Source: an uncultured Gammaproteobacteria bacterium (GTDB lineage Bacteria > Pseudomonadota > Gammaproteobacteria > SZUA-229). From it: a stretch of DNA of 64,000 nucleotides. The notes beneath the pieces were generated by a model. The model made no database searches and was not told where the DNA came from. It saw only the letters and a list, made by a program, of their open reading frames with translations. The stretch is taken from contig CAWECN010000012.1 in NCBI GenBank assembly GCA_963807625.1, positions 259,583-323,582 of the forward strand. Direction: 5' to 3'. Position numbers and translations under genes: made by a program. This document shows positions 14,175 through 45,284 of this stretch, in pieces (within the stretch, counting starts at the first letter, position 1; every line of letters begins with the position of its first letter).

Positions 14175-14180
14175 TGCTCG

Positions 14181-14456: not shown

Positions 14457-14463
14457 TCTGCGT

Positions 14464-14736
14464 ATGTCTACTCTCGTCATCACATTATTAACTGTCGTAC
14501 TATGTGCAGGTATCCTGATCGGGGGCCTGCTTGCAGTCATACTCAATAATATGGTCAGCGCGGTAATCAGCGCCGGCCTTGCCAGCCTGTTCGCTTCCGT
14601 GGTCTACGTGGTGCTGGCCGCACCCGATGTGGCGATGACCGAGGCGTCTATCGGCTCCGGCCTGACCACCATGATCTTTCTCTATGCTATCCGTAAAACA
14701 CAGAGCGCAGAGTCAGATAGCGAGGAGGACAAATGA
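14464..14736 (+). CDS. MbhD-like subunit (DUF4040, MrpA C-terminal-like)
   Basis: The internal start MSTLVITLL... of ORF 14380..14736 carries the conserved APDVAMTEASIGSGL motif of DUF4040/MbhD. Confidence 0.55.
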   Translation: MSTLVITLLTVVLCAGILIGGLLAVILNNMVSAVISAGLASLFASVVYVVLAAPDVAMTEASIGSGLTTMIFLYAIRKTQSAESDSEEDK

Positions 14737-15089
14737 CGTTTCTCGGTGATATCGTTGGCAACCTGTTCCTGATCATCGGTTCGCTGTTCCTGTTTTCAGC
14801 AGGACTCGGTGTGTTGCGCATGCCTGACACCTACAACCGTATCCAGACCGGCACCAAAGCGACCACGCTGGGTACCATCATGGTGCTGATCGGGCTGGCT
14901 TTTCTGCATCCGGCCTGGACCTTGAAACTCATCATCCTGATCTTCTTCGTCATGCTGACCAACCCGGTTTCATCACATGCACTGGCACGTGCCTCACACG
15001 CCACAGGCATACATGGAACTGAGGAAACAGTGATCGACCAGCTCACTGACGCTACCGAAAAAGATAATGTCGAGGTTAAACCGGAATGA
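14733..15089 (+). CDS. MrpG/MnhG-like subunit
   Basis: 118 aa. GLGVLRMPDTYNRIQTGTKATTLG matches the MnhG signature. The start overlaps the upstream gene's stop (ATGA), which suggests translational coupling. Confidence 0.7.
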   Translation: MTFLGDIVGNLFLIIGSLFLFSAGLGVLRMPDTYNRIQTGTKATTLGTIMVLIGLAFLHPAWTLKLIILIFFVMLTNPVSSHALARASHATGIHGTEETVIDQLTDATEKDNVEVKPE

Positions 15090-15829
15090 TCAAACGAATC
15101 TTCATCTTTTTGATGCTCGTTCTGATGGCGATGATCTTTTTCAACCTTGCCGCGAACTATACCGAGAATACTTCGCTGTCCAAACTCGGCCACTACTATG
15201 CTGACAGAGGCCCCGAGGAACTGGGTGCACCCAATCTTGTTACCGCCGTGGTGGTGACCTATCGCGGCCTGGATACACTGGGTGAAGTCACTGTGCTGTT
15301 CATCTCTGCCGCCGGTGTCGGCCTGCTGCTGCGCCGTACCCGACGCAACCAGGATGATGATGAAGGTCTCGAAAAAGGTGACCGTGCGGAAGAGACAGCG
15401 GGCATACATAAACCTGCCAGTGAGATCGTCGAAACCGCCACCGAACTGTTGCTGCCGATGGTGATCCTTTTCGGTGTCTATGTCTTCATGAATGGTCACC
15501 TCTCGCCCGGTGGCGGATTCCAGGGCGGTGCGATCATCGCCTCTGGCACCATGTTCCTGCTGCTGGCATTACCGGAGTCACACATCAGCCGATTGATGAT
15601 CGCAGTCACAGAATCGCTGTCTGGCTTCAGCTACGTCGTGGTCGGTGTGCTCGGCGTTACTCTGGCAGGCGGCTTTCTCGACAACCGTATCATGGATCTT
15701 GGCACCTATGGCCACCTGTTCAGTGCCGGCGCGATACCGCTGATCTACACCTTCGTCGGCCTCAAGGTCGGTTTTGAACTGAGCGCAGTACTCGACCGCT
15801 TCCGCAAGGAGGACACCGGCCCGGTATGA
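15086..15829 (+). CDS. MrpB/MnhB-domain subunit
   Basis: 247 aa. NLVTAVVVTYRGLDTLGEVTVL is the MnhB motif, and GHLSPGGGFQGG is present. ATGA overlap with the upstream gene. Confidence 0.65.
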   Translation: MIKRIFIFLMLVLMAMIFFNLAANYTENTSLSKLGHYYADRGPEELGAPNLVTAVVVTYRGLDTLGEVTVLFISAAGVGLLLRRTRRNQDDDEGLEKGDRAEETAGIHKPASEIVETATELLLPMVILFGVYVFMNGHLSPGGGFQGGAIIASGTMFLLLALPESHISRLMIAVTESLSGFSYVVVGVLGVTLAGGFLDNRIMDLGTYGHLFSAGAIPLIYTFVGLKVGFELSAVLDRFRKEDTGPV

Positions 15830-16206
15830 ACATGCTAACCGACATCCCGATTTCACTCATCGTTCTGTGCAGCGGCCTGGCCCTGATACTGATCGGCATG
15901 TGGGGCATGCTGACACAGCGTAACATGATCCGCATGATCATCGGCTTCTCGCTGACCGATACCGGTATCCACATGGTCATGGTATCGATAGGTTATGTCA
16001 CCGGCGGCACGGCGCCGATCATCAACGATGCGGTACCCATAGCCGATGCCGTTAACATGGTGGTTGATCCGGTACCCTCTGCACTGGTTCTCACCGCCAT
16101 CGTGATCGGTCTCGGTGTTACCGCGGTGATGCTGGCCTTTGCAGTTCGTATCTATAAAGCGCGCAACACTTTAAACATCGATGAATGTACGGAGTCGAAA
16201 TGGTAA
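15826..16206 (+). CDS. MrpC/NuoK-like subunit
   Basis: 126-aa three-TM protein of the NuoK/MrpC family (GMWGMLTQRNMIRMIIGFSL). Confidence 0.7.
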   Translation: MNMLTDIPISLIVLCSGLALILIGMWGMLTQRNMIRMIIGFSLTDTGIHMVMVSIGYVTGGTAPIINDAVPIADAVNMVVDPVPSALVLTAIVIGLGVTAVMLAFAVRIYKARNTLNIDECTESKW

Positions 16207-19200
16207 CGGCAAGTCTGTTAGATACATTGCTGCAGCCATTGAGCATCTACGTACTCGCACTCGGTGCGGGTTTCCTGATTCCGCTGTTCGACCGTGCCCA
16301 CCGCGGCTCGGCGATAATGGTTTTCATGCTCGCCCTGGCGGGCCTGGTAGTAATCGCCGGCTTTAACCTGCTGGCCATCATCAACGGTGCACCGGCCATC
16401 GATATCGAAACCGCCGGCATAAAACCGCCGTTTTCCATCAATTTACGATTTGGCCTGTTCGAAGGCGGCTTCGTGCTCGCCGTCAATACCGCCGCATTAC
16501 TGGGCGCCTGGCATTACCTGCCGAAACTGAAAGAACACGCCTCTGCGCTGCTGCTCTACCTGATCCTGGTGATGGGCATCAACGGCATGGTGATGACCCG
16601 CGACCTGTTTAACCTGTTTATCTTCATCGAGATCACATCGATCGCCACCTACGCGCTGATCGGCATGGAGCGCACCGGCAGTGTGCTGGCCGCCGGTTTT
16701 AAATACATCATCGCGACTTCGATCGCATCGGCATTTTTCCTGCTAGGCACCATCTTTATCTATTACCAGACGGGCACGCTGAACATCGATGACATCATCG
16801 CGCACAGTGCGGCGATCCAGGGCCCTATCGGCTTTATCGCCACCCTGTTCGTACTTACCGGCCTGCTCATCGAACTCAAACCCTACCCGGCTAACGGCTG
16901 GGGGCTGGATGTTTATGAAACCGCTCCCAGCGGCATCGCCTCATTGATTTCTGTGGGTGTTTCTGCCGGTGTATTTTTTGCGGTATATAAGGTGCTACCG
17001 CTGGCGGGTGACTTCTTGCAGAGCATCGCGATAATCGGCGGATTCACCTTCCTGTTTTCAAACGTTATCGGCCTGAAGCAGGAAAACGCCAAACGTCTGC
17101 TCGGGTATTCATCTATCGGCCAGATGGGACTGCTAACCATGGCACTGGCATTACTGGCACAGATGGATAGCGGTACCCAGGCACCGATTATTATCGGCGG
17201 CCTGTTTGTTAATCACCTGCTGGCCAAGGCAGGACTGTTCTGGCTCGCTGGTTTAGTCGATCGAAAAAGTATCCGTGACTGGTCAGTGATTACCAAAAAT
17301 CGTGGCATGTTACTACTGCTCGGCATCATGATAGTTGCATTGGTCGGCCTGCCGCCTTTCCCCGGGTTCTGGGCGAAATGGGAACTGGTCATGCTGCTGG
17401 CCAGCAATGAACTGTTTGGCTGGATCGCACTGGTATTGCTCGGCTCACTGCTGGAAGCCGCCTATTTGTTCCGCTGGTTCAGTTACGCACAACAGACTGA
17501 CGAATCACAAACAGAATCTACCGCTAGTTACTCACCTGCCACATACTGGCAGCAGGCACCCATCGCCATCGCTGCACTGCTACTGTTTGCAACTGGCTAT
17601 ATCATGGCGATGGTCATGCAGGTCGTTACCCCCGAATTATTCCTGCCGCTGGTGGCCGGCCTGGTGCTCTGGTTGATCGACGGTGTACCCGGACGCTTCA
17701 AAAATCTACCGATGCTGGTTGCTGTTGGTGTCTGTGGCTACCTGCTTACCAATGAACTCGAAGGCATCAACCGCCTGTTCAGTTACCTGCTGATTGGCGG
17801 CGGCCTGCTGGTAAGCATCGCTGCGATGTACCGCAATGATGCACGCAGGGGTTTCTACCCGCTGCTCGCAGTCCTGTTACTGTCGCTGGCCACCCTGTTA
17901 CGCGCACAGACCACGCTGGAATTTTTCTTTGGCTGGGAACTGATGACGCTGAGCTCCTACCTGCTGGTAACACTGGGACGAGACAGCCTGCATAACGGCA
18001 TCAAACCTGCGTTGACTTACCTGCTGTTCTCACTCGGTTCAGCCTATTTCATACTCACTGGTTTCGCCGTCGCTTATGGCGTTAGCGGCAGCCTGCTATT
18101 AAGCAGCCTTGGCAATAGCGGCGACTCGACAGGCATCATCTTCAGCCTGCTGGCACTCGGCTTCCTCATCAAGATGGGCGGTTTCGGCGTACACATCTGG
18201 TTGCCTGGCGCCTATGCTGAATCGGATGATGACTTCACCGCTATCCTCTCTGCCGTGGTCAGCAAGGCCGGCGTCTTCGGCCTGATCATCGTCGCTGCCC
18301 AGCTGGGAATACGCTCCGATATCGGGCTCGAGCCGGCTTATGTGCTCGGCTGGATCGGTATCCTCACCGCCACGTTCGGTGCCTTGATGGCCGTGTTCCA
18401 GGAAGACATCAAAAAACTGGTGGCCTATTCCAGTATGGGTCAGCTGGGTTACATCGTCACAGGTGTCGCCCTGATGAGCCACCTAGGCTGGGTATCAGCC
18501 ATGTATATGACGGTCAATCACTTCCTGTTCAAAGGCATCCTGTTCCTGTCGGTCGCCGGCATCATCCTGCGCACCAACCAGCGCATGATGTACAAGATGG
18601 GCGGCCTGATCAAGAACATGCCATTTACTTTCACCTTCACCATGATCGCGATCATCGCCATGTCCGGGGTGCCGCCGCTGACCGGTTTTGGCGGCAAGTG
18701 GATGCTGTTCAACGCACTGATGGAGAAAGGCTGGTACTGGATCGCAGCGCTGGCGTTCTTCTCCAGCGCTGTTGCATTCCTCTATATGTTCCGCCTGCTG
18801 CAGACCGTGTTTCTCGGCCAGCGCAAGCTCGAACATCACAAGTTACGCGAAGCCCCGGCTATCCTGCTGATCCCGCAGGGTGTAATGATCGCCTGCATCA
18901 TGGTGGTCTCGGCGTATCCGAAACTGCTGCTTGATCCTGTATCCGCAGCCATCGATCCGTGGATCGCCAATACCCTGGTGTGGGAAGGCACCGCGATGGT
19001 GGCACACTTCGGTTACTGGAATGCACCGATGATCATGGCCGTGGTCGCCGGTGTCTGGATGGTGCCGCTGATACTGCTGCTGCTGATCTCACTGACCTTA
19101 AAGATCCAGAAAGTCGAGCAGTTCAATATCGTATTTGCAGCTGAACGTCCTCGCCGTCCGGAAGAGACACATTTTGCCTATAACTTTTTTGCGCATTACG

Positions 19201-19385
19201 ACCGCGCCATCGGCTTCCTGGTAAGACCGCGGGCGACCGCATTCTGGAACACCGTGGCCGAGTGGAGCCACACCATGGCATCATCACTACGCATTTTCTA
19301 TAGCGGTAACGGCCAGACCTATGCACTATTCGTCATCATGTATTTTGTTGCCATGTTCCTGCTTAATGGAGGACTCGCCCTGTGA
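16185..19385 (+). CDS. Fused tandem antiporter-like subunit (two MrpD/NuoL/M/N modules in one 1066-aa polypeptide)
   Basis: Module 1, about aa 1–500, has FIEITSIATYALIG and LGYSSIGQMG. Module 2, about aa 560–1000, has FFFGWELMTLSSYLLV and VAYSSMGQLGYIVTG. Both are hallmark motifs of proton-pumping NuoL/M/N and MrpA/D subunits. Confidence 0.75.
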   Translation: MYGVEMVTASLLDTLLQPLSIYVLALGAGFLIPLFDRAHRGSAIMVFMLALAGLVVIAGFNLLAIINGAPAIDIETAGIKPPFSINLRFGLFEGGFVLAVNTAALLGAWHYLPKLKEHASALLLYLILVMGINGMVMTRDLFNLFIFIEITSIATYALIGMERTGSVLAAGFKYIIATSIASAFFLLGTIFIYYQTGTLNIDDIIAHSAAIQGPIGFIATLFVLTGLLIELKPYPANGWGLDVYETAPSGIASLISVGVSAGVFFAVYKVLPLAGDFLQSIAIIGGFTFLFSNVIGLKQENAKRLLGYSSIGQMGLLTMALALLAQMDSGTQAPIIIGGLFVNHLLAKAGLFWLAGLVDRKSIRDWSVITKNRGMLLLLGIMIVALVGLPPFPGFWAKWELVMLLASNELFGWIALVLLGSLLEAAYLFRWFSYAQQTDESQTESTASYSPATYWQQAPIAIAALLLFATGYIMAMVMQVVTPELFLPLVAGLVLWLIDGVPGRFKNLPMLVAVGVCGYLLTNELEGINRLFSYLLIGGGLLVSIAAMYRNDARRGFYPLLAVLLLSLATLLRAQTTLEFFFGWELMTLSSYLLVTLGRDSLHNGIKPALTYLLFSLGSAYFILTGFAVAYGVSGSLLLSSLGNSGDSTGIIFSLLALGFLIKMGGFGVHIWLPGAYAESDDDFTAILSAVVSKAGVFGLIIVAAQLGIRSDIGLEPAYVLGWIGILTATFGALMAVFQEDIKKLVAYSSMGQLGYIVTGVALMSHLGWVSAMYMTVNHFLFKGILFLSVAGIILRTNQRMMYKMGGLIKNMPFTFTFTMIAIIAMSGVPPLTGFGGKWMLFNALMEKGWYWIAALAFFSSAVAFLYMFRLLQTVFLGQRKLEHHKLREAPAILLIPQGVMIACIMVVSAYPKLLLDPVSAAIDPWIANTLVWEGTAMVAHFGYWNAPMIMAVVAGVWMVPLILLLLISLTLKIQKVEQFNIVFAAERPRRPEETHFAYNFFAHYDRAIGFLVRPRATAFWNTVAEWSHTMASSLRIFYSGNGQTYALFVIMYFVAMFLLNGGLAL

Positions 19386-20320
19386 TCTTCGATAGTATGA
19401 GCGAATGGCTGTCCAAAGCCGGTTATTTTTCACTTACTTTATTGATAGTAACGTTCTACGGATTGTTCGTCGGCGCATGTATCGAACGTATCATCGCCAA
19501 GGTACAGGGCCGTATCGGTATCCCCTACTCACAGCCGTTCATAAATATCCTGAAGAACTTCTTTAAACGTACCGCCATCAGCCACGGCATCATGTTCTAC
19601 CTCGGCCCGGTATTCCGTATCGCCGGCGGTATCGGTACCCTGGCTTTCATACCGGTTATCTACGGCAGTGAAATGTTCTCTAATTTCAGCGCGGCCGGTG
19701 ACCTGTTCCTGGTAATCTATTTCATGTTTTTCGGCCAGCTGGGTATGGCGCTGGGCGCCGGTGAAAGCGGACATCCTTACGCTGCCATCGGCATCGCCCG
19801 CGGCCTGTCGCAGATGACCGCCTATGAAGTACCGTTTGCACTGGCGGTTATCTCCATCGTCATCCAGTACGACACCCTGTCTATCAACGAGATCGTCGCT
19901 GCCCAGCAAGGCGGCTGGCAGAACTGGACGATGGTCACCAACTGGGTGGCGACGCTGGCTGCGATGCTGGCATTCCTCGGCATGACCGGTTACTCGCCGT
20001 TTGATATCTTCCTGGCACCACAGGAGATCCCGATCGGCCCACCCACCGAATTTCACAGCTCCTATCTTTCCCTGCTGCAGATCAACCGTGCGCTGTTCGG
20101 TGCCACCAAGCTGGTACTGTTCATGAACCTGTTTTTCGGCGGTGCCACCGGCTGGGTCGAACTGATGATCAAGACCTTCCTGATCTATATGGTCGCCATC
20201 GTCGTCGGCGTCGCCTTCCCGCGCTTCAGGGTCGACCAGGCGATTCGTTTCTTCTTTAAAATCCCGACCCTTATTGGGATAATGTCAATCGTATACGTGC
20301 AGATGGTACTGACTGCCTAA
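19382..20320 (+). CDS. NuoH-like (MbhM/HyfC/CooK-like) membrane subunit
   Basis: 312-aa polytopic protein of the complex I subunit 1 family (GLFVGACIERIIAKVQGRIGIPYSQPF). ATGA coupling with the upstream gene. Confidence 0.75.
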   Translation: MIFDSMSEWLSKAGYFSLTLLIVTFYGLFVGACIERIIAKVQGRIGIPYSQPFINILKNFFKRTAISHGIMFYLGPVFRIAGGIGTLAFIPVIYGSEMFSNFSAAGDLFLVIYFMFFGQLGMALGAGESGHPYAAIGIARGLSQMTAYEVPFALAVISIVIQYDTLSINEIVAAQQGGWQNWTMVTNWVATLAAMLAFLGMTGYSPFDIFLAPQEIPIGPPTEFHSSYLSLLQINRALFGATKLVLFMNLFFGGATGWVELMIKTFLIYMVAIVVGVAFPRFRVDQAIRFFFKIPTLIGIMSIVYVQMVLTA

Positions 20321-20332
20321 TAGGACATAACT

Positions 20333-20965
20333 ATGATTAAAAGTCTGAACACAGAAGATACCCTGGAAAATGCCGGGCTAACCGAAGAAGAGCAGCTGCT
20401 GTTCAGTAATGCCCGGCCTAAAGCTTACGAACCTTATCCGATCAAGGCGGTCGAAGACTTTGCTAACTGGGCGCGTGCGAATTCATTATGGATACTGGCA
20501 TTCGGTACAGGCTGTGGCGCCATCGAACTGCGCCCGCTGATGACGGCACGATTCGATGCCAACCGTTTCGGTGTCGCCGGCCGTCCGACACCGAGACAGT
20601 CATCGGTATTCATCATCGGCGGCTATGCCTCGGTAAAAACACTGAAACGTATCGTTCGCAGCTATGAGCAGATGCAGGGGCCCAAGTTCGTGATCTGTCT
20701 CGGCATCTGCCCGGTCAACGGCGGCATGTATTTCGACAGTTACAACACGATCAACCAGTTCGACCAGTACATACCGGTCGACCTGTATATCACCGGCTGT
20801 ATGCCGCGCCCTGAAGTACTGGTCGCCGGCATCATGGAACTGCAGAAAAAGATCAAGGCCGGTGAATGTGACGGCGCCAACCGTTATGTAGAAAACTTCG
20901 ACTGGTATAAAGCCAACCAGAAAAAAGTCATCAAGAACTGGGATATGCCGGATTATAACTGGTAA
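20333..20965 (+). CDS. NuoB-like (hydrogenase small-subunit-like) Fe-S subunit with an incomplete cluster-N2 Cys set
   Basis: 210 aa. GTGCGAIEL shows a single Cys where NuoB has a CC pair. GICPVNGG and GCMPRPE match the NuoB motifs GxCxxxGG and CPP. Confidence 0.8.
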   Translation: MIKSLNTEDTLENAGLTEEEQLLFSNARPKAYEPYPIKAVEDFANWARANSLWILAFGTGCGAIELRPLMTARFDANRFGVAGRPTPRQSSVFIIGGYASVKTLKRIVRSYEQMQGPKFVICLGICPVNGGMYFDSYNTINQFDQYIPVDLYITGCMPRPEVLVAGIMELQKKIKAGECDGANRYVENFDWYKANQKKVIKNWDMPDYNW

Positions 20966-21011
20966 CAGAATTTGGCTGGTAGCCAATATTAGCTAATAGA
21001 TAAGTGAAACT

Positions 21012-21554
21012 ATGAATGAATTGATGGAAAGACTGCAGCGTGACTTTGGTGTCAATGACATCATCGTGCGTAAACCTGCGCTGACGACACTCAAGGTCAG
21101 TAAAGACAGTACTGAAACACTGATCCGTGAACTGCGCGATCGTGAAGGTTACACGCATCTCAATTTCATGACCTGCATCGACTATATCGAGGACGGCATT
21201 TTCACCCTGGTCTACATGCTGCACAACTTCGAAAAAACACACTCAATAGGCGTACACGTCGATATCAGCCGTGACAATGAAGACATGGTCTCCATCCATA
21301 CACTGTGGGCACAGGCATGGACCTACCAGCGGGAGCTGCGTGAGATGTACGGCATCAATTTCCCCGGCAGCCCGCGTCTCGAGGAAGACTTCTGCCTGGA
21401 AGGCTGGGACGATATACCACCGATGCGCCGCGAGTTCGATACCAAAAAATTCAGCCAGGAACGTTTCGGCCACCGTGAAGGCCGGCACAGCGAAGTGCCG
21501 CGTGAGCACATGAAAGTAGAAATCTACCCGAACCGCGGGGGTGACGAGAAATGA
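21012..21554 (+). CDS. NuoC-like (30-kDa subunit) protein
   Basis: 180 aa. ERELREMYGINFPGSP is the NuoC signature. Confidence 0.75.
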   Translation: MNELMERLQRDFGVNDIIVRKPALTTLKVSKDSTETLIRELRDREGYTHLNFMTCIDYIEDGIFTLVYMLHNFEKTHSIGVHVDISRDNEDMVSIHTLWAQAWTYQRELREMYGINFPGSPRLEEDFCLEGWDDIPPMRREFDTKKFSQERFGHREGRHSEVPREHMKVEIYPNRGGDEK

Positions 21555-22750
21555 AACTGCCATTTGGACGTGCCTCTAGCGGCCCCATATCAACAGGCCA
21601 CTCCGCCTCACTGGATTTTGCCCAGCCGGAACCTGTCGACCTGGCTTCAGGCAAATACGTCAAACTGTGGCAGGGCCCGCAGCACCCGGGGATTACCGGT
21701 AACATGTCACTGGAGCTGACGCTCGACGGTGACACCATCATCGATTGCAAGACCCACGTCGGCTACCTGCACCGCGGTTTCGAAAAGCTGATGGAACGCC
21801 GCAGCTTCATCCAGAACTTTACTGTGGTGTGCCGTATCGCAGTACCCGAACCGACATTCAACGAATACCTTTATTCTCATGCGGTCGAGGAACTCAGCGG
21901 CATCGAGATACCAGAGCGTGCCACCTGGCTACGCACCATGAACCTCGAAATGATGCGCCTCGCCAGTTTCCTGATGTGGATTGGCGGCCAGGGCGGCGCC
22001 TTCGGCCAGTACACCGTAGCTAACTGGACACTGGCCTATCGTGACTATGTACTCGACCTGTTCGAAGAGATGACCGGCGCCCGTATTTACCACATGTATA
22101 TCGTGCCCGGCGGCGTACGTGCCGGCCTGCCCGATGGTTTCGAGAAACGCGCACGCGAGATCATGGACGGTGCTGAAAAGCTACTCGATCAGATCGAACG
22201 CGTGATGTTTAACAATACTGTTTTCAAAGCACGCTCGAAAGGCCTCGCCATTATCCCGCCTGAAATGATCGACCCCTACGGTGTCGTCGGCCCTAATGCA
22301 CGCGCCTGCGGTGTTAAACGCGACCTGCGTAAAGACGAGCCTTACCTGGCCTACGATCAGCTCGATTTCGAAGTCATCACTGGCACAGATTCAGATGCTT
22401 ACGAACGTGCTTATCTGCGTCTGCAGGAAACCCGTCAATGCATCAGCCTGATCCGCCAGTGCCTGGATCGTATGCCGATGGATGGACCTTTCCAGGCAGA
22501 TATGCCCAACGTATTACACTGGAAAGTGCCTGCCGGTGAAACCTATGTGAAAGCGGAGTGTACCCGCGGAGAATACGGTTACTACATGGTGACCGATGGA
22601 TCAGAATTCGTGCGCCGTGTCCATGTACGCGGTCCGAGCTACACGCATGCCATCGCCGTGATGGAGCGCCTCGCCGTCGGCAACAATATCGCTGATATCG
22701 CCGGCATGATGGTTTCGCTGCACACATATCCACCCGAGATAGAGCGATGA
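21551..22750 (+). CDS. NuoD-like / [NiFe]-hydrogenase large-subunit-like protein lacking Ni-Fe cysteine ligands
   Basis: 399 aa. WQGPQHPG and HVGYLHRGFEKLME are NuoD-type motifs. There is no N-terminal RxCGxC and no C-terminal DPCxxC. The C-terminus ...VHVRGPSYTHAIAVMERLAVGNNIADIAGMMVSLHTYPPEIER has no cysteine. Confidence 0.8.
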   Translation: MKLPFGRASSGPISTGHSASLDFAQPEPVDLASGKYVKLWQGPQHPGITGNMSLELTLDGDTIIDCKTHVGYLHRGFEKLMERRSFIQNFTVVCRIAVPEPTFNEYLYSHAVEELSGIEIPERATWLRTMNLEMMRLASFLMWIGGQGGAFGQYTVANWTLAYRDYVLDLFEEMTGARIYHMYIVPGGVRAGLPDGFEKRAREIMDGAEKLLDQIERVMFNNTVFKARSKGLAIIPPEMIDPYGVVGPNARACGVKRDLRKDEPYLAYDQLDFEVITGTDSDAYERAYLRLQETRQCISLIRQCLDRMPMDGPFQADMPNVLHWKVPAGETYVKAECTRGEYGYYMVTDGSEFVRRVHVRGPSYTHAIAVMERLAVGNNIADIAGMMVSLHTYPPEIER

Positions 22751-22766
22751 TGGGAGAGATAATGTC

Positions 22767-24575
22767 ATGAGCTTAAAAGACCTGCTCTCACCTTTTTTCG
22801 TCTGGCAGCGTGCCTTCGAAAAACCTTATACCTCGATTCGACCAACAATCGATCGTCCAGGCGCACCGGCTTACCGCGGCTTTCATATCAACATCACCGA
22901 AACCTGCGTCGGCTGCGGCAGCTGCCACGAGATCTGCCAGAACCAGGCCATCGATATGGTCGCGGTCGAGGAATTCCAGGGCCGTGACGGCGACAGCGGA
23001 CTGCGCCCGCGTTTTGATTACGGCCGCTGCTGCTGGTGCGGTCTCTGTGTCGATATCTGTACCGCCGCCTCGCTTCGCATGAGCAACGAATACGCCTGGA
23101 TCAGTGAAGATCCGAACTCATTTCACTTCACTGCCGGTGTCGATGACAAGCCATGGCAGGACAACGAACACGGTTACCGCCGCGCTGAAGGTTATCACCT
23201 GTATCCGCCCAAACGCATCGAGATGGATATGCTGTCGCCGGAAGAAAGTGTTAAGTCGTTCGATGAAGTCGCCAAAGGTTATGACGAACAGCAGGCGAAA
23301 AAAGAAGCCGACCGCTGTGTTGAGTGCGGCATCTGTGTTGCTACCTGTCCGGCGCACATGGATGTCCCTGATTATATTCACAGCATCCGCGACGGTGACT
23401 ACGAAAAAGGCCTGCAGCTGATGTACCGTACCAACCCGTTCCCGGCGACCTGCGGCCGCATCTGTACACGAAACTGCGAATCAGTATGTCCCGTAGGTAT
23501 CCTCGGTGAACCGGTCGCAATCCGCTGGCTGAAACGTTTCATCGTCGACCAGGTCGATAAAAAAGATTACAAACGTATATTGAATGAGCAGATAACTGAA
23601 AGCGGACGCAAGGTTGCCATCATCGGTGCCGGACCGGGCGGGCTCAGTGCAGCTTATTACCTGCGCCAGCAGGGGCATGCCGTTACCGTATTCGAAGCAC
23701 AGGAATCAGGTGGTGGTATGCTGCGCTACGGTGTACCGAGTTATCGACTGCCGGACGATGATCTGGATAAGGATATCGATTACATCGTCTCACTCGGCGT
23801 CGATATCAGGTACAACACCCGAGTTGGTAAAGACGTCACATTTGAAAAACTGCTGGAAGATTATGATGCATTGTTTATGTCTACCGGACTTTCTGTGCCT
23901 TCCAATATGCGCATCCAGGGTGAAGACCATCCGCGCGTCTTATCCGGCCTGCAGGTACTGGCCGATGTGGCCAACGGACGCGACCCGGGTATCGGCAAGA
24001 AAGTCGCTGTCATCGGTGGTGGTAATGTGGCAATGGACGCGGCACGTGTCTCCCGACGCTTCGGTGCGGATGTCACCATACTCTACCGCCGCCGTATCAG
24101 CGAGATGCCGGCAGATGAAGAAGAGATTCACGAATCTCAGGAAGAAGGCTGCACCATCGTACAGCAGGCGATCCCGGTCGAAGTCATCAATGCCGAGAGC
24201 GCCGAGCAGGTTTCAATCAGATGGGGTGAAGCCGAAATGGTCGATGACCCCAAAGGCGGTCGTCCCCGTCCTGTACTGCAGGAAGACCGCATGCATACCG
24301 AGACCTATGACTGCATCATCTCAGCCATCGGTCAGGGCAGCAACCTGGACTACATCCCGAAAGAGGTTCAGGAGCAAATGGAAGTTGAATGGGGCAAATT
24401 CACACCCGGTGAATATCAGCATACGATACTTGAAAAAGTCTTTGTCGGCGGTGATTTTGCCAACCGTACGGCCGATGCCATCAGCGCTATCGAAGACGGT
24501 CATCACGCTGCCCGCGGTATTAACCGTTTCCTCAACCCGGATGCTTACATCGATACAGAACAACAGGTAAATTAA
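22767..24575 (+). CDS. Fusion protein: N-terminal 2x[4Fe-4S] ferredoxin (NuoI/MbhN-like) joined to a GltD/SudA-like NAD(P)H-dependent FAD oxidoreductase
   Basis: CVGCGSCHEICQN and CCWCGLCVDICTAAS are two ferredoxin motifs. CVECGICVATCP...PFPATCGRICTRNCESVCPVG is a GltD-type N-terminal Fe-S region. KVAIIGAGPGGLSAAYY and KVAVIGGGNVAMDAAR are two dinucleotide-binding folds. Confidence 0.8.
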   Translation: MSLKDLLSPFFVWQRAFEKPYTSIRPTIDRPGAPAYRGFHINITETCVGCGSCHEICQNQAIDMVAVEEFQGRDGDSGLRPRFDYGRCCWCGLCVDICTAASLRMSNEYAWISEDPNSFHFTAGVDDKPWQDNEHGYRRAEGYHLYPPKRIEMDMLSPEESVKSFDEVAKGYDEQQAKKEADRCVECGICVATCPAHMDVPDYIHSIRDGDYEKGLQLMYRTNPFPATCGRICTRNCESVCPVGILGEPVAIRWLKRFIVDQVDKKDYKRILNEQITESGRKVAIIGAGPGGLSAAYYLRQQGHAVTVFEAQESGGGMLRYGVPSYRLPDDDLDKDIDYIVSLGVDIRYNTRVGKDVTFEKLLEDYDALFMSTGLSVPSNMRIQGEDHPRVLSGLQVLADVANGRDPGIGKKVAVIGGGNVAMDAARVSRRFGADVTILYRRRISEMPADEEEIHESQEEGCTIVQQAIPVEVINAESAEQVSIRWGEAEMVDDPKGGRPRPVLQEDRMHTETYDCIISAIGQGSNLDYIPKEVQEQMEVEWGKFTPGEYQHTILEKVFVGGDFANRTADAISAIEDGHHAARGINRFLNPDAYIDTEQQVN

Positions 24576-24590
24576 AGCAGGTAAATTAAT

Positions 24591-25037
24591 ATGAATACAG
24601 TTGATGAGATACTGGATTACGCCATTGATCAGGAACAGCAGGCAGCTGATTTTTATGCAGATGTCGCACAACGCGCCGAGTCAGCCGGCATGAAAAAACT
24701 GCTGCTGGACTTTTCCGAAGAAGAAAAACGCCATAAAGAGATCCTGCTGGCAGTGAAAACCGGCGAGCATGAACTGACACCGGAACAGGAAGTACTGGAT
24801 CTGAAGATTTCTGATTACCTGGTCGAAGTCGAAGCCAGTGAAAACATCTCCTATCAGGACGCGTTGATCATCGCGATGAAACGTGAACGCGCCGCCTATG
24901 AACTCTACACCGACATGGCGGCAAAAGTACCCGAAAGCCACCTCAAGGAAGTGCTCGAGGGCCTCGCCAAAGAAGAGGCGAAGCATAAACTGTTCTTCGA
25001 AGCAGAATATGATGAACGGGTGCTGATGGACAACTAA
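24591..25037 (+). CDS. Rubrerythrin/ferritin-like diiron protein (no rubredoxin domain)
   Basis: 148 aa with two E..H di-iron half-sites (EEEKRHKE, EEAKHKL) in a four-helix-bundle pattern. It starts 16 nt after the preceding gene, so it is probably co-transcribed. Confidence 0.6.
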   Translation: MNTVDEILDYAIDQEQQAADFYADVAQRAESAGMKKLLLDFSEEEKRHKEILLAVKTGEHELTPEQEVLDLKISDYLVEVEASENISYQDALIIAMKRERAAYELYTDMAAKVPESHLKEVLEGLAKEEAKHKLFFEAEYDERVLMDN

Positions 25038-29120: not shown

Positions 29121-29239
29121 TAATACAGCTTACTCTGTCATCCTGAACGCTAGTGAAGACTCTAAAAGTACTGTCGTAAAAGAGCCCTCACTAACGTTCA
29201 GGAATGCATAGTATTTGTGACCGCCGTTTTTATTATCGA

Positions 29240-29632
29240 TCAGCGTTGTGGTTCTGTATAACGTCCACCATAACCAGGTCCGTAATAAGGGGCATAATTT
29301 GGCTGACGAGCATTACGATCAACACCGCCATAGTTAGAACCATCATAATTATTGTAATAACGGTCAAAGTAGATGTTTTCTGAACCATTACGCAGGTTGC
29401 CGTAGACATAACCATCAGCATCACCACGCAGTTTCATATTGAACTGGACATTCCCCTGAAGTGAACCATCACCTGAGGTATCGCCAGAACCACCATGGTG
29501 TCCCTGGTAATAACTATTGTTACGCCAGTTATTATTCCCGTTATTCCTACTATAGTTATTATCCCACCAGGCATTGGCCGAAGCTGAGATCATTAACGAC
29601 ATCATCGTTGAAACACATAGCAGATATTTCAT
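29240..29632 (-). CDS. Secreted low-complexity Gly/Tyr/Asn/Trp-rich protein, putative sulfur globule protein (Sgp-like), paralog 1
   Basis: MKYLLCVSTMMSLMISASANA is a signal peptide. The mature part is about 55% G/Y/N/R/D/W (NNYDGSNYGG, YYGPGYGGRY). A GAGGTG RBS precedes the ATG. It is paralogous to 43268..43684. Confidence 0.5.
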   Translation of the reverse strand: MKYLLCVSTMMSLMISASANAWWDNNYSRNNGNNNWRNNSYYQGHHGGSGDTSGDGSLQGNVQFNMKLRGDADGYVYGNLRNGSENIYFDRYYNNYDGSNYGGVDRNARQPNYAPYYGPGYGGRYTEPQR

Positions 29633-29813
29633 ATAGCACCTCATATGGATACATCGATTACTATACCCTGTGGACAACTATATAAAATCCATCTATCAAA
29701 TACAATAAGTGTTATAAAACCAAAAAGAGACCATCGCCGTTTTTGGCGATGATCTCATAATAATAGAGCCATCCGTGGCAAGCAGGAGTCCTTTCTGTCA
29801 GCTATGACAAGTT

Positions 29814-34520: not shown

Positions 34521-34553
34521 TTGTCACATCCTGTAACATCCTTGTAACAATTC
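34521..34553 (+). promoter_or_regulatory. Pho box (three 11-bp-phased TGT(C/A)AC repeats) upstream of pstC
   Basis: TTGTCACATCC TGTAACATCCT TGTAACAATTC. The 7-bp PhoB half-sites recur at 11-bp periodicity. Confidence 0.6.
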
Positions 34554-34570: not shown

Positions 34571-36769
34571 ATGAAAGATCAGACCTTACAGATGCGGTAC
34601 AATCGGCGGGCCCTGAAAGACCGCCTGGCACGATACTTTGTAGCTTTAGGTGGAATCAGCGTTATCATCGCTATCCTGTTGATTTTCTTCTATTTGCTTT
34701 ATGTTGTTATACCGATGTTCGGTTCAGCTGAAATTCATGAAAGCGTAACATACACTGCCCCAGCAGAAGGCAAAACTCTGCATCTCGGATTGGAAGAGCA
34801 AGGCACCATCGGTGTAAGATTCACAGACAAAGGCCATGCAATCTTTTTCGATACCGCTTCCGGCGATATTATTCAGGATGAAAATTTTGATCTGCCGGCA
34901 CCCATCAGCAGTGTCGCTGCCAATCTGGACCTCGTGGTACTTGGCCTAACTAACGGTTCAGTAATAGCGGTGCGTTACAAGTTCGACCTAAGTTATCCAG
35001 ACGATATCCGCACCCTGACGCCAAGGCTAGAATATCCATTGGGTAAAGATCCACTGACACTCGATGAGTCTGGTGAATCACTATCACATATAGCCATTCA
35101 ACTCAGTGATGACATCGTCGGCCTGGCGGCCACGACTAGTGATAACCGCCTGGTGTTTACCCGTTACCTGCGTGAACAGTCTTTCATCAGCGAAGACATC
35201 ACTATCGAACTTGAATCAAGGTCTGAACAGGCATTCGAGTATGATATCTCTTCGATCGCACTGACACCCGGGCTGGATCATCTATATGCTGCGATTGCGG
35301 GCGGTAAGCTGGAAGACTTTTCACTGGATGATGAAGGCTTCGATGGCAACAGGACAGAATATCACTTCGACCATGATATCACCCGGCTCAAACTTCTGCT
35401 CGGCGGCTCGTCTTTAATGGTCGGCATGAAGAACGGCGAAGTACAGCAATGGATGTCAGTTCGAAAAGATGGCGGCAGAGAATTAACCTTCATACGTAAC
35501 TTCCATGAGAATACAGAAGCTGTTACCACTATCGCCACCGAGCAGCAAAGAAAAGGTTTTGCCGTCGCTGATACACAAGGTGACATCACGATTTATTATT
35601 CAACATCACAAAGAACACTGGCAAACATTAACACGGCAGATGCGCAGATAGAGCAGATGGCATGGTCGGCACGTGCCCAAAACCTGATAGCGGCAGACAG
35701 TAGTAACCAGATACGACTGTACCAGGTACATAACGAGTATCCAGAAGTATCCTGGGACGTGTTATGGGGCAAGATCTGGTACGAAGGCTATGACGAAGCA
35801 GATTATATCTGGCAGTCGTCTGCTTCGACCAACGAGTTCGAACCCAAGTTCAGCTTGATGCCGCTATCATTCGGCACCATCAAGGCTGCATTTTATGCCA
35901 TGTTGTTCGCCGTGCCGATCGCCATATTAGGTGCGATATTTACCGCACAGTTCATGGCGCCACGCATGCGCCAGACGGTAAAACCATCGATCGAGATCAT
36001 GGAAGCACTGCCTACTGTTATCCTCGGTTTCCTGGCTGGTTTATGGCTCGCGCCTTATGTAGAAACGCATCTTGCAGGAATATTTACCCTGCTATTGATA
36101 ATGCCCGTTGGCTTTATAGTATGCGCATGGCTCTGGGGCTACATGCCAAACAAATCTGCCTACGAAGGCTGGGAAGCAGCATTGCTTATACCCGTGGTTC
36201 TGCTTTTGATCTGGGTTTCTATGTCCTTAAGTTCACCGATCGAGACACTCTTTTTCGATGGTGACATGCGAACCTACATGAGCAACGAATGGGGCCTGAA
36301 CTATGACCAGCGAAATGCACTGGTCGTCGGTCTGATCATGGGTTTTGCTGTTATCCCGACAATATTCTCGATTGCAGAAGATGCTTTATTCAGTGTGCCA
36401 CAGCACCTGGTGCGTGGTTCACTGGCACTGGGCGCAACACGCTGGCAGACGATGACAAGCGTGGTACTGCCGGCCGCTAGTCCAGGCATATTCTCAGCTG
36501 TGATGATGGGTTTTGGTCGTGCCGTTGGTGAGACTATGATCGTCTTGATGGCAACGGGTAATACGCCATTGATGGACATGAGCATATTCCAGGGTATGCG
36601 CACACTGGCAGCAAACCTGGCGGTAGAGGTTCCTGAAGCAGAAGTCTTCAGTACACACTATCGTGTCCTGTTCCTCGCTGCATTAATACTGTTTCTGTTC
36701 ACCTTCGTATTTAATACACTCGCAGAAATAATTCGTCAACGTTTACGCCAGAGGTACAGCGGCCTATGA
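34571..36769 (+). CDS. pstC: Phosphate ABC transporter permease PstC (long form with an N-terminal periplasmic extension)
   Basis: The C-terminal half has ABC-permease TM helices and the EAA-like loop (ALGATRWQTMTSVVLPAASPGI). The long N-terminal domain resembles pseudomonad-type PstC. The true start may be at 34592. Confidence 0.85.
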   Translation: MKDQTLQMRYNRRALKDRLARYFVALGGISVIIAILLIFFYLLYVVIPMFGSAEIHESVTYTAPAEGKTLHLGLEEQGTIGVRFTDKGHAIFFDTASGDIIQDENFDLPAPISSVAANLDLVVLGLTNGSVIAVRYKFDLSYPDDIRTLTPRLEYPLGKDPLTLDESGESLSHIAIQLSDDIVGLAATTSDNRLVFTRYLREQSFISEDITIELESRSEQAFEYDISSIALTPGLDHLYAAIAGGKLEDFSLDDEGFDGNRTEYHFDHDITRLKLLLGGSSLMVGMKNGEVQQWMSVRKDGGRELTFIRNFHENTEAVTTIATEQQRKGFAVADTQGDITIYYSTSQRTLANINTADAQIEQMAWSARAQNLIAADSSNQIRLYQVHNEYPEVSWDVLWGKIWYEGYDEADYIWQSSASTNEFEPKFSLMPLSFGTIKAAFYAMLFAVPIAILGAIFTAQFMAPRMRQTVKPSIEIMEALPTVILGFLAGLWLAPYVETHLAGIFTLLLIMPVGFIVCAWLWGYMPNKSAYEGWEAALLIPVVLLLIWVSMSLSSPIETLFFDGDMRTYMSNEWGLNYDQRNALVVGLIMGFAVIPTIFSIAEDALFSVPQHLVRGSLALGATRWQTMTSVVLPAASPGIFSAVMMGFGRAVGETMIVLMATGNTPLMDMSIFQGMRTLAANLAVEVPEAEVFSTHYRVLFLAALILFLFTFVFNTLAEIIRQRLRQRYSGL

Positions 36770-38445
36770 TTCAGCAACAAGGGATGAGCCAAAAAACAAA
36801 AGCGTGGTTTAAGAGCGGCACTCCCTGGATATGGATGAATGCCGGTGCGATCGCTATCTCACTGGTCGCCGTATTTGGTTTATTGCTGCTTATCCTGTTT
36901 CGCGGCATGAGCCATTTCTGGCCGGCGAACGTAGAGACATTTTATTATGAAAACGGCAGTAATTCGCTAACGGTCATTGCAGAGGTCGTCGAATCAGAAA
37001 TAGTACCTGCTGAATCACTTCACGGTATAGACAATGCTGGAGGCGATGCGGAAGGCAATATCGAACGTTACCTGGTGAAGACAGGCAACCGCGACATACT
37101 CGGTAGCGATTTTAGATGGTTATACGACATCGACCTTGTAAAACGTGAACAACCAGAAGAACTGATGGTCCTCGAACGAATCGAGTGGGGAAACTTCTAC
37201 GGTTACCTTAATTCAGTTTATGAGAACGATGAACTGGTTGCCAGTGGTAACCAAGCATGGCCTGAATTTAAGCAACGTCTTCGCAGAACCATCGAAATAC
37301 GTGAAAATATACTGCATCTCGAGCAGGTCGAGATCGGTGCCATCAACTACAAGCTGGAACGGTTACGCTTAAAAGAGCGAAGCTTGCAGCTTGATGACGA
37401 ATTAACCGAGGATGCAGCCAAAGAGTTAGCAGAAGTGCGCGCTGAGCTGAATCTCGAATACGAGGACCTGCTAAAAGAGACAAAGATACTTTACCAGGAT
37501 ATCAACCGCGACTCGATTCGTGCGACTGTAATGGATGGCAGTGAAGTAACTGTTCCGCTAGAGAAGATCGTCAAAGCCTGGCAGCCAAACAATATGTCCA
37601 TACCGAATAAACTTGGCTTCTACGTTTACACGTTATGGAGCTTTATTACAGAAGACCCGCGTGAGGCCAATACGGAAGGTGGCATCTTCCCGGCAATATT
37701 TGGTACCGTGATGATGGTAATGCTGATGGCAGTACTGGTCACACCACTCGGCGTTATCGCCGCAGTTTACCTTCGGGAATACGCAAGACAGGGTGTATTG
37801 ATCCGGGTTATCCGTATCGCTGTAAACAATCTTGCCGGTGTACCTTCCATCGTATATGGTGTATTTGGCCTGGGCTTCTTTATTTATTTCCTGGGTGGGA
37901 ATATCGATGCATTGTTTTTCCCTGAAGCACTACCCTCTCCCACTTTTGGCACACCAGGATTGATGTGGTCGTCGCTTACCCTGGCATTGCTGACATTACC
38001 GGTGGTGATCGTCGCCACAGAAGAAGGACTATCACGTATACCAAGAAGTTTACGCGAAGGCAGCCTTGGTCTTGGCGCAACGAAAGCTGAGACGCTGTGG
38101 CGCGTCGTCCTACCGATGGCAAGCCCCGCCATCATGACCGGATTAATCCTGGCTGTCGCCAGGGCTGCCGGTGAAGTTGCACCCCTGATGCTGGTCGGTG
38201 TTGTCAAACTGGCCCCCAGTCTGCCGCTTGATGGCAATTTCCCGTTCTTGCATCTTGACCGTAAATTCATGCACCTCGGCTTTCACATCTATGATGTAGG
38301 TTTCCAGAGCCCAAATGTCGAAGCTGCACGCCCACTGGTTTATGCGACATCATTCCTGCTCGTTGTTGTTATCGTCACTCTGAACCTGACGGCCATTAAC
38401 TTAAGGAACAGGCTGCGTGAAAAATACCGTGCGCTTGATAATTAA
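36766..38445 (+). CDS. pstA: Phosphate ABC transporter permease PstA (long form)
   Basis: GLGATKAETLWRVVLPMASPAIMTG permease signature. ATGA overlap with pstC. Confidence 0.85.
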   Translation: MIQQQGMSQKTKAWFKSGTPWIWMNAGAIAISLVAVFGLLLLILFRGMSHFWPANVETFYYENGSNSLTVIAEVVESEIVPAESLHGIDNAGGDAEGNIERYLVKTGNRDILGSDFRWLYDIDLVKREQPEELMVLERIEWGNFYGYLNSVYENDELVASGNQAWPEFKQRLRRTIEIRENILHLEQVEIGAINYKLERLRLKERSLQLDDELTEDAAKELAEVRAELNLEYEDLLKETKILYQDINRDSIRATVMDGSEVTVPLEKIVKAWQPNNMSIPNKLGFYVYTLWSFITEDPREANTEGGIFPAIFGTVMMVMLMAVLVTPLGVIAAVYLREYARQGVLIRVIRIAVNNLAGVPSIVYGVFGLGFFIYFLGGNIDALFFPEALPSPTFGTPGLMWSSLTLALLTLPVVIVATEEGLSRIPRSLREGSLGLGATKAETLWRVVLPMASPAIMTGLILAVARAAGEVAPLMLVGVVKLAPSLPLDGNFPFLHLDRKFMHLGFHIYDVGFQSPNVEAARPLVYATSFLLVVVIVTLNLTAINLRNRLREKYRALDN

Positions 38446-42116: not shown

Positions 42117-42145
42117 CTGTAACAAAATTGTAACAACTCTGTCAT
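42117..42145 (+). promoter_or_regulatory. Pho box upstream of pstS
   Basis: CTGTAAC-AAAA-TTGTAAC-AACT-CTGTCAT. Three 7-bp repeats with 4-bp spacers, about 60 bp upstream of the pstS ATG. Confidence 0.7.
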
Positions 42146-43213: not shown

Positions 43214-43244
43214 AAAAAAAGCCGGGATTACCCGGCTTTTTTTT
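43214..43244. terminator. Bidirectional rho-independent terminator (pstS / sgp-like paralog 2)
   Basis: AAAAAAGCCGGG-ATTA-CCCGGCTTTTTTTT. Confidence 0.8.
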
Positions 43245-43267: not shown

Positions 43268-43684
43268 TTACTGGGCTGGAGCCGCTGGCGCAGCTGGAGC
43301 TGGTGCAGGTGGTGGAGCATAGTAACCAGGACCCGGACCATAGGCACGGCCATAATATGGGCGGTTGTAATAACCATTATAGCTGTCATAACGGTTGTCC
43401 CAACGATTATCCCAACTGTTGTCCCAGCGGTTATTGCCGTAATACTCGTTGCGTGCATTACCACGACCGCTGCCGCGCGCATTACCGCTCATGCCAAAGT
43501 TAAAACTACCGTCGACATCACCAGAACCGTCGCCATAACCGTCGCCATAGCCGTAACCGTCATTACGCATGTCATTGCGCCAGTCGTTACGCCAGTCATT
43601 GTTCCAGTTGTTGTCATCCCACGCATTCGCTGATGCTGATACGACTAACAATGCAGCTGTTGCTGCTGTAAGTAAAAGTTTCAT
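43268..43684 (-). CDS. Secreted Gly/Tyr/Asn/Trp/Asp-rich repeat protein, putative sulfur globule protein (Sgp-like), paralog 2
   Basis: Signal peptide MKLLLTAATAALLVVSASANA. Repeats WDNNW / WRNDWRND / YGYGDGYGDG / NRWDNSWDNRWDNRYD and a Pro/Ala-rich tail. An AGGAGGG RBS precedes the ATG. Confidence 0.5.
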   Translation of the reverse strand: MKLLLTAATAALLVVSASANAWDDNNWNNDWRNDWRNDMRNDGYGYGDGYGDGSGDVDGSFNFGMSGNARGSGRGNARNEYYGNNRWDNSWDNRWDNRYDSYNGYYNRPYYGRAYGPGPGYYAPPPAPAPAAPAAPAQ

Positions 43685-44093
43685 AATTCATCCCTCCTTC
43701 AGGATATATTTTCACATTTAACGCAGTTCTCACCACTCGGTAATAATACTGCTAATTCTCGATAAAATACAAACTTCATCTGTAATGTTACAAAATATCC
43801 CTACTAACACATTGATATAAATCAATAAACAACAAACCAGTCCCTTTATGAGAAACGCCTGTATGGGCTAGATAAAAATCCTGAATCTACCCCTATCGAC
43901 TGACTACGAAAACCTTGCACTTTGAGGTAGAATACGCGCGCATTTTGGTGGTTGATGATAATCGTTGTCATAAACGCGGCAATCCTCTTCAACGTTTTAT
44001 AAACGCGAAACGCCACGAAATAACAGATTTTTAATACAGAGCTGGTCATGCCTTGATTAAGGCCAGCATGATAATAACTACTGGAGAAAATAC

Positions 44094-45284
44094 ATGATTA
44101 AACCTCATGGTTCAGACGAACTAAATCCACTGTTCGTATACGATCCCGCTGCAAACGAAGCATTACAAAAAGAAGCTGAAGGCCTGGCTTCTATCCTTGT
44201 AAGTTCTGCTACAGCCGCTAACGCAGTCATGCTGGGTGCCGGTTACTTCAACCCGCTGACGGGTTACATGAATAAAGCTGATGCATTATCAGTTGCAACA
44301 GACCTGAAAACTACATCTGGCCTGTTCTGGCCTACTCCAGTGTTAAACCTGGTAAAAGATGCGGGTGGCATCAAAACCGGTGATCGTATCGCGCTTAAAG
44401 ATCCAAACGTTGAAGGTAACCCTGTTATCGCAGTCATGGATGTTGAAGCAGTCGAAGAATTTTCCGACGACGACATCAAGTTGATCACCGAGAAAGTCTA
44501 TGCGCCTGCAGCTGGTGAAGACCACCCGGGTGTTGACGCTTTTGTTGAGCAGGGTAAAGTATGCCTGTCAGGCCCTATCCAGGTACTGAACTTCTCTTAC
44601 TTCCAGACTGAATTCCCTGATACTTTCCGTACTGCTGTTGAGATCCGCAACGAGATCGCAGAACGCGGCTGGAAAAAAGTTGTTGCCTTCCAGACCCGTA
44701 ACCCGATGCACCTCGCACACGAAGAACTTTGCCACATGGCGATGGATCGTTTAGGTTGTGATGGCCTGGTCATCCACATGCTGTTAGGCAAACTGAAACC
44801 AGGTGATATCCCTGCGCCTGTTCGTGATGCTGCTATCCGTAAGATGGTTGAACTGTACTTCCCTGCTAACAGCGCAATGGTTACCGGTTACGGTTTCGAT
44901 ATGCTGTACGCTGGACCACGTGAAGGTGTATTACACGCTGTGTTCCGTCAGAACATGGGGGCGACTCACTTCATCATCGGTCGTGACCATGCTGGCGTTG
45001 GTGATCACTACGGTGCGTTTGATGCACAAACAATATTTGATGACAAGGTACCAGCCGGTGCATTGGAGATCGAGATATTCAAAGCCGACCACACCGCCTA
45101 CTCTAAGAAATTAGACAAAGTTGTAATGATGTGTGAAGCACCAGATCATGAGAAAGAAGATTTCGTTCTTCTTTCAGGTACTAAAGTTCGCGAGATGTTA
45201 GGTAACGGTATCGCACCACCTAAAGAATTCTCACGTCCCGAAGTTGCTCAGATCCTGATGGATTACTACTCAAGCCTAAAATAA
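44094..45284 (+). CDS. sat: Sulfate adenylyltransferase (dissimilatory-type ATP sulfurylase)
   Basis: QTRNPMHLAHEEL, GRDHAG and HxxH-like motifs of homo-oligomeric ATP sulfurylase. 396 aa. Confidence 0.9.
   Translation: MIKPHGSDELNPLFVYDPAANEALQKEAEGLASILVSSATAANAVMLGAGYFNPLTGYMNKADALSVATDLKTTSGLFWPTPVLNLVKDAGGIKTGDRIALKDPNVEGNPVIAVMDVEAVEEFSDDDIKLITEKVYAPAAGEDHPGVDAFVEQGKVCLSGPIQVLNFSYFQTEFPDTFRTAVEIRNEIAERGWKKVVAFQTRNPMHLAHEELCHMAMDRLGCDGLVIHMLLGKLKPGDIPAPVRDAAIRKMVELYFPANSAMVTGYGFDMLYAGPREGVLHAVFRQNMGATHFIIGRDHAGVGDHYGAFDAQTIFDDKVPAGALEIEIFKADHTAYSKKLDKVVMMCEAPDHEKEDFVLLSGTKVREMLGNGIAPPKEFSRPEVAQILMDYYSSLK

Follow-up and report, generated by a model that had tools for sequence, protein, structure and literature searches.

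A divergent candidate member of the sulfur globule protein superfamily in a gammaproteobacterial genome

Paralog 1, encoded by a small gene in the 64,000-nucleotide stretch of DNA analysed here (the window), is best supported as a member of the sulfur globule protein (SGP) superfamily, one that is divergent and had not been classified before, and as a distant relative of globule-coat proteins. Profile comparisons with shuffle controls tie its clade to the SGP family, to which it appears to add a rare side branch. The gene itself is real and under purifying selection.

To our knowledge, no proteins other than sulfur globule envelope proteins have been identified in the S0 storage inclusions of bacteria. 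Envelope proteins of this kind are poorly conserved, and standard annotation regularly overlooks them. Typical members are small (mature chains of about 8-15 kDa), carry a cleavable Sec-type signal peptide, and are repetitive, with regularly spaced prolines or a Pro/Ala-rich C-terminus.

The open reading frame of paralog 1 had been placed correctly in a preliminary description of this DNA; it lies on the minus strand, with its ATG at 29632 and its TGA at 29240-29242, and encodes 130 residues ending in TEPQR (Table 1). The 130-aa orthologues in public assemblies are called from the same start. The N-terminus, MKYLLCVSTMMSLMISASANA followed by WW, has on inspection the n-, h- and c-regions of a Sec signal peptide and an A-x-A site, in keeping with the earlier proposal of a small Sec-secreted protein and giving a predicted signal peptide of 21 residues. 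The junction, A/S-x-A followed by W, is common to all relatives of paralog 1, and the mature chain opens WWDNNY. The sequence has no lipobox: the invariant Cys that bacterial lipoproteins carry at the cleavage site is absent, and the sole Cys (residue 6) sits in the n/h region and is Y, G, N or T in orthologues.

Mature paralog 1 has a pI of 6.9 and is strongly hydrophilic (GRAVY -1.57), with 17.4% Gly, 17.4% Asn, 13.8% Tyr, 8.3% Arg, 7.3% Asp, 6% Ser and 2.8% Trp. The preliminary description had it made almost entirely of Gly, Tyr, Asn, Arg, Asp and Trp, which overstates their extent, as these six make up about two thirds of the mature chain; the short repeats it quoted, NNYDGSNYGG and YYGPGYGGRY, are both present, though each appears a single time, and the DNA shows no tandem repeat. 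Prolines number only four, at residues 111, 115, 119 and 127 (spacing 4, 4 and 8), and the Ala/Pro C-terminal tail that typical members and paralog 2 have is absent. AlphaFold2, run with a 23-sequence alignment, gives a mean pLDDT of 40.8 and no secondary structure beyond the signal helix, which fits a low-complexity structural protein. The exact sequence of neither paralog was found among the public assemblies searched.

Table 1. Positions of paralog 1, paralog 2 and associated features in the window
Feature	Position	Strand	Description and basis
Paralog 1 coding sequence	29240..29632	-	130 aa including signal peptide; ORF list and sequence, orthologue calls, dN/dS
Signal peptide of paralog 1, residues 1-21 (MKYLLCVSTMMSLMISASANA)	29570..29632	-	Predicted SPase I cleavage after A-N-A; sequence inspection
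Mature paralog 1	29243..29569	-	109 aa, 12.5 kDa, Gly/Asn/Tyr-rich, predicted disordered
Conserved core, residues 56-104 (GSLQGNVQFNMKLRGDADGYVYGNLRNGSENIYFDRYYNNYDGSNYGGV)	29321..29467	-	14 distinct orthologues compared
Shine-Dalgarno of paralog 1, GAGGTG	29637..29642	-	4 nt ahead of the ATG; read from sequence
Intrinsic terminator of upstream porin gene	29727..29756	-	12-bp stem and T-run; terminator scan
Long inverted repeat	29131..29213	.	Between the convergent msrA and paralog 1 genes; 33-nt arms
Paralog 2	43268-43684	-	138 aa, more typical SGP-like, Pro/Ala-rich C-terminal tail; divergent from sat
Shine-Dalgarno of paralog 2, AGGAGG	43693-43698		
Terminator of paralog 2, GCCGGG-TAAT-CCCGGC-T7	43214-43236		Bidirectional, between paralog 2 and convergent pstS
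sat	44094-45284		
aprB	47757-48230		
aprA	48248-50233		
DsrE-like gene	54038-54526		Product with signal peptide (periplasmic)
Pho-box-like direct repeats (YTGTMAY-N4-YTGTMAY)	42117-42145		Tandem, upstream of pstS
Pho-box-like repeat	34531-34548		One copy, upstream of pstC
Pho-box-like repeat	13427-13444		One-mismatch copy

Standard family models do not reach paralog 1, which has no match in Pfam, NCBIfam or a PDB sequence search. The relevant Pfam model is PF17228 ('Sulphur globule protein'), with a gathering cut-off of 26.7 bits; it is the top Pfam match of an orthologue 91% identical to paralog 1 (P0001; 19.3 bits, E 0.002), and another protein, P0010, scores 19.7 bits, both below the cut-off, and no member of the paralog 1 clade attains the gathering score. 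When 1.84 billion representative proteins were searched exhaustively (hmmsearch) with a paralog 1 profile, only 10 proteins were returned, nine of them small secreted proteins of the same build as paralog 1; two of these nine exceed the PF17228 cut-off (31.3 and 41.0 bits) and one more has a sub-threshold match. The tenth (P0018, 1320 aa with a bactofilin domain) was rejected as a chance match, sharing only a repeated 'ADTALQGNI' motif of which each stretch is insignificant.

Signal peptides inflate comparisons of this kind, so a first hhalign run that included them was set aside and the comparison was repeated on mature chains with shuffle controls. The mature paralog 1 clade then aligns with 22 mature sequences of PF17228 type over 61 columns at 96.1% probability (E 3.3e-9), with a score of 55.8 vs 11.0 +/- 2.1 (maximum 16.4) for 100 column shuffles of the query. 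An HMM built from PF17228-positive mature sequences gives mature paralog 1 28.0 bits, and the best of 300 residue shuffles scores -1.4. Since the real scores lie far above both the residue- and the column-shuffle controls, the similarity depends on residue order and is not merely compositional. A database search with the combined mature alignment found 31 proteins, most with PF17228, among them a protein of the Solemya velum gill symbiont (P0027) that carries the UniRef name 'Sulfur globule protein CV1'. In a multiple alignment, paralog 1, its sister subfamilies, paralog 2, the Solemya protein and Beggiatoa ALG67575.1 have a common order of motifs: a mature N-terminal Trp, an N/D/W-rich stretch, GDxSGDG, a hydrophobic FxM(K/S)(M/L), a basic Gly-rich stretch, RYxNY, PYYG...GY and a proline-containing tail. 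The Sgp-like identity first suggested for paralog 1 is thus upheld as order-dependent profile homology to PF17228 proteins, with the qualification that the protein falls below the Pfam threshold and in a separate rare clade.

Searches of databases, genomes and metagenomes yielded about 14 distinct orthologues of paralog 1 with 63-91% identity. Values of dN/dS are 0.39 and 0.17 against the orthologues at two loci (L001 and L002, respectively). Constraint is concentrated in a 49-residue core, where 26 of 49 columns are invariant among 14 distinct orthologues and mean identity is 0.93; each flank has 4-6 invariant columns and a mean identity of 0.72-0.78.

Gene order around paralog 1 is identical on every contig long enough to show it: rubrerythrin, phosphoglucomutase, DUF465, DksA-like, outer-membrane beta-barrel protein, periplasmic MsrA, paralog 1, a porin of the Porin_O_P family, two small ORFs and ACR3. 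The immediate conserved neighbours are therefore the phosphate-type porin, MsrA, whose gene is convergent with that of paralog 1, and the beta-barrel protein, with no sulfur genes among them. The nearest related genome is the gammaproteobacterial MAG JABDRN01. The phosphoglucomutases of the syntenic genomes are 88-96% identical, so the shared order reflects recent common descent and not functional linkage; with genomes this closely related and genes convergent, the MsrA, outer-membrane protein and porin neighbourhood is weak evidence for a functional link to paralog 1. A sister subfamily (P0014/P0020) occupies the equivalent locus in related genomes, beside MsrA, the outer-membrane beta-barrel gene and DksA, and the P0014 version of the locus has no porin. 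On the L001 contig, which comes from an IMG co-assembly of brackish microbial mats, the module of Sgp-like gene, periplasmic MsrA and beta-barrel protein is duplicated in tandem (positions 2419-7900, a segmental duplication); one copy has a P0020 subfamily gene and the other a paralog 1 orthologue and the porin. A published study of brackish microbial mats is one source of the orthologous loci (IMG 3300040774-3300040801; PMC8605020).

Paralog 1 most likely forms its own transcription unit, since the upstream porin gene ends in a terminator and a very stable hairpin follows the paralog 1 stop codon. The repeat that forms this hairpin folds as RNA with -51.8 kcal/mol (z = -7.9 vs shuffles) and is likely a bidirectional terminator or a 3' stabilising hairpin. 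Scanned for the sigma-70 consensus, the gap at 29633-29726 yielded no promoter. Codon usage is ordinary and resembles that of sat and aprA less closely than the usage of paralog 2 does, and this speaks against very high expression: GGT/GGC supply 74% of Gly codons in paralog 1 and 100% in paralog 2, and its Asn and Tyr codons are mostly T-ending.

Paralog 2 is the only other SGP-like gene in the window. As the preliminary description had noticed, the two N-termini match, both having a junction of SASANA followed by W(D/W)DNN(W/Y). Paralog 2 scores 17.8 bits (E 0.006) on PF17228, again under the cut-off, and all four of its database homologues have PF17228. BLASTP of one paralog against the other gives no significant alignment with composition correction; without it, the two are collinear with 37% identity over 106 residues (E 2e-17), a result that we do not rely on because it is significant only in the uncorrected search. 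The N-terminal half of paralog 1 is collinear with both paralog 2 and the globule protein of Beggiatoa leptomitoformis. The two paralogs are alike in their near-identical signal-peptide/mature junctions, in being monocistronic and in having strong ribosome-binding sites. Paralog 2 differs in being acidic (pI 4.5) and Trp-rich, in its Pro/Ala tail, in lying next to sat and in its sat/aprA-like codons, its Gly and Arg codons being 100% GGT/GGC and CGT/CGC, as in sat and aprA.

The sat, aprBA and periplasmic DsrE-like genes that had been cited as context are all present in the window, and this setting fits a sulfur-oxidising gammaproteobacterium. No dsr, sqr/fcc or sox genes were seen within the 64 kb, so sulfur storage by the host is an assumption. 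The Pho-box pattern has 7 matches in the window vs 1.3 expected; ahead of paralog 1, paralog 2 and the porin there is no such box, and the best scores there do not rise above background. The window has no Rfam families or tRNAs.

The window has several other loci of note. The pst genes at 34571-38445 include an unusually long pstC (732 aa), with weak beta-propeller/WD40-like matches at residues of about 236-393, ahead of the permease domain, and a pstA of 559 aa. A Mrp/Mbh-type membrane complex at 13665-25037 comprises MnhE, MbhD, MnhG, MnhB/MbhE, a NuoK-like protein, a 1066-aa double antiporter-like subunit and NuoH-, NuoB-, NuoC- and NuoD-like proteins, followed by a GltD-like Fe-S flavoprotein and a rubrerythrin. 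An IS110-family transposase at 10240-11363 is split into two overlapping ORFs; this IS element has probably either undergone a frameshift or uses a programmed one. A 459-aa protein with three fasciclin domains is encoded at 8190-9569. At 52051-57223, the gene of an ECF sigma factor, probably paired with an anti-sigma factor, lies with genes for a secreted AhpC/TSA-type redoxin, the periplasmic DsrE-like protein, a DUF302 protein and a 316-aa protein with no Pfam match that ends in Phe and has the look of an outer-membrane beta-barrel.

Judging from the sequence, we consider it fairly probable that paralog 1 serves in the periplasm as an envelope or accessory protein of sulfur globules. Its precursor would be exported by Sec and cleaved after Ala21, and the 12.5-kDa, disordered, Gly/Asn/Tyr/Trp-rich mature chain would self-associate in the periplasm, probably alongside the more canonical paralog 2. 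Together the two would form or modify the thin protein envelope of periplasmic zero-valent sulfur globules, with aromatic Tyr and Trp side chains toward the sulfur and Asn, Asp and Arg toward water, and the stored sulfur would later be oxidised by cytoplasmic pathways ending in AprBA and Sat, both encoded in the window. The globule-coating role is drawn entirely from family membership and the sat/aprBA context. Counting against it are the sub-threshold Pfam scores, a BLASTP similarity to paralog 2 that is lost on composition correction, the single short motif aligned with the Beggiatoaceae proteins, conserved neighbours unrelated to sulfur, the ordinary codon usage and the hydrophilic chain. 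Within it, an accessory or specialised envelope component is more likely than a bulk coat protein, given the unusually constrained 49-residue core and the lack of a long Pro/Ala tail. A further proposal, which we regard as tentative and rather unlikely, is that the paralog 1 clade with its P0014/P0020 sister constitutes a separate, Pfam-undetected SGP-like class in which the core is an interaction module, or one recruited to a non-sulfur matrix role in the periplasm or outer membrane. If it is a separate class, the core may dock canonical coat protein or polysulfane chains and so control globule nucleation or size.

As the main alternative, the same features can be read as those of SGP kin with another periplasmic or envelope job, namely a self-assembling low-complexity protein, prion- or hydrogel-like, serving as matrix or stress protein. 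The tightly conserved core, distinct to this clade and missing from canonical SGPs, would suit such a protein, as would the very hydrophilic chain, the lack of a long Pro/Ala tail, the sub-threshold PF17228 score and a locus that, across two subfamilies, sits beside outer-membrane proteins and periplasmic MsrA. That locus, however, is shared by recent common descent, as the phosphoglucomutase identities show, and its genes are convergent and not co-transcribed; all named or characterised relatives come from sulfur storers (the Solemya symbiont, Beggiatoa and Thioflexithrix), and Pfam, NCBIfam and PDB offer no alternative family. We therefore hold this other job to be doubtful, and the globule envelope or accessory role remains the reading that we prefer.

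Two further explanations fare much worse. Both paralogs do adjoin phosphate genes (the Porin_O_P porin in the case of paralog 1, pstS with the pst-phoBR cluster in that of paralog 2), which could mean that paralog 1 belongs to the phosphate-starvation (Pho) response. Yet Pho boxes are clear at pstS and pstC and missing from both paralogs and the porin, the porin gene and paralog 1 have a terminator between them, as do paralog 2 and pstS (here a bidirectional one), and P0014, of the sister subfamily, is found at this locus in the absence of a porin; Pho-regulon membership is very improbable, and we reject it for want of a Pho box upstream of either paralog or the porin. That paralog 1 might be a chance ORF, or SGP-like by composition only, could be argued from its biased composition, the blank composition-corrected BLASTP against paralog 2 and an AlphaFold model with no structure. 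It is contradicted by purifying selection, by orthologues that keep length, frame and core, by the Shine-Dalgarno sequence and signal peptide, and by similarity beyond the residue- and column-shuffle controls; this explanation is exceedingly improbable and is refuted as far as sequence analysis reaches.

With the paralog 1 clade tied to the SGP family, the curated PF17228 model is seen to miss a whole rare clade and to catch only narrowly the sole chemotroph protein with experimental support. The host is flagged as a probable sulfur-storing oxidiser, and two candidate coat genes are gained for globule proteomics or for mapping of microbial-mat metatranscriptomes. The biology is otherwise as expected, multiple scattered sgp paralogs being normal in such organisms.

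Among known systems, the PF17228 family (A. vinosum SgpA/SgpB, of the CV1/CV2 type, and relatives in chemotrophic symbionts) is one of the closest in kind: its members are likewise small, Gly/Tyr-rich and disordered, with a Sec-type signal peptide, a mature Trp start, collinear motifs and several paralogs per genome. Paralog 1 departs from them in its score below the cut-off, its Asn-rich (17%), hydrophilic chain and its four C-terminal prolines in place of a long Ala/Pro tail. Its clade is very rare (about 10 clusters in the 1.84 billion representatives searched) and has a nearly invariant core of its own (GYVYGNLRNGSENIYFDRYYNNYDGS) with no counterpart in canonical SGPs. The A. vinosum Sgp proteins have been described as extremely hydrophobic (PMC10386293), whereas mature paralog 1, with its GRAVY of -1.57, is hydrophilic. 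SgpC and SgpD of A. vinosum may offer an analogy in role, as non-bulk modulators of the envelope; mature SgpD also starts with Trp (PMC10386293) but is predicted to be helical or coiled-coil, which paralog 1 is not. Related loci show further arrangements. In GCA_053999835.1 (L003, 4851-8384), three SGP-like genes lie within 3.5 kb; the proteins of 193 and 197 aa each contain the entire SGP unit twice over, by internal duplication, and Pfam recognises only the third gene. In GCA_016744375.1 (L008, 2000-6426), an SGP-family gene lies directly 3' of that for a 1295-aa RND-type (ACR_tran) transporter, an arrangement reminiscent of A. vinosum, where sgpD reportedly neighbours a hydrophobic/amphiphilic exporter.

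The chemotrophic gammaproteobacterium B. leptomitoformis provides a 15-kDa protein, ALG67575.1; when a transposon disrupts its gene, sulfur globules and lithotrophic growth are both lost, and thiosulfate induces the gene 10-fold (PMC7356093). Scored on PF17228 with its B. alba and Thioflexithrix homologues (sequences from the PMC7356093 supplement), ALG67575.1 reaches 27.7 bits and the other two 22.7 (B. alba) and 21.4, so at a cut-off of 26.7 the Pfam model is barely sensitive enough even for accepted members. An alignment to Beggiatoa Sgps, which the preliminary description had put forward as a check, recovers the FNM(S/K)(M/L) motif (14 columns, E 0.01, profile vs three Beggiatoaceae proteins) and nothing beyond it. 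Like paralog 1, ALG67575.1 has a signal peptide ending in A-x-A followed by WW; its motif GSGWGDFNMSMGGGGRGYG matches GDGSLQGNVQFNMKLRGDADGYVYG of paralog 1, and YNNYNY and then Y/G/P-rich segments follow. Long GYAPAPY repeats are a feature of the Beggiatoa proteins and are absent from paralog 1; function is experimentally supported in Beggiatoa, whereas that of paralog 1 is proposed from sequence. Several scattered sgp paralogs per genome are typical of sulfur-storing bacteria (PMC6509183; PMC10386293), which speaks for the envelope reading of paralog 1.
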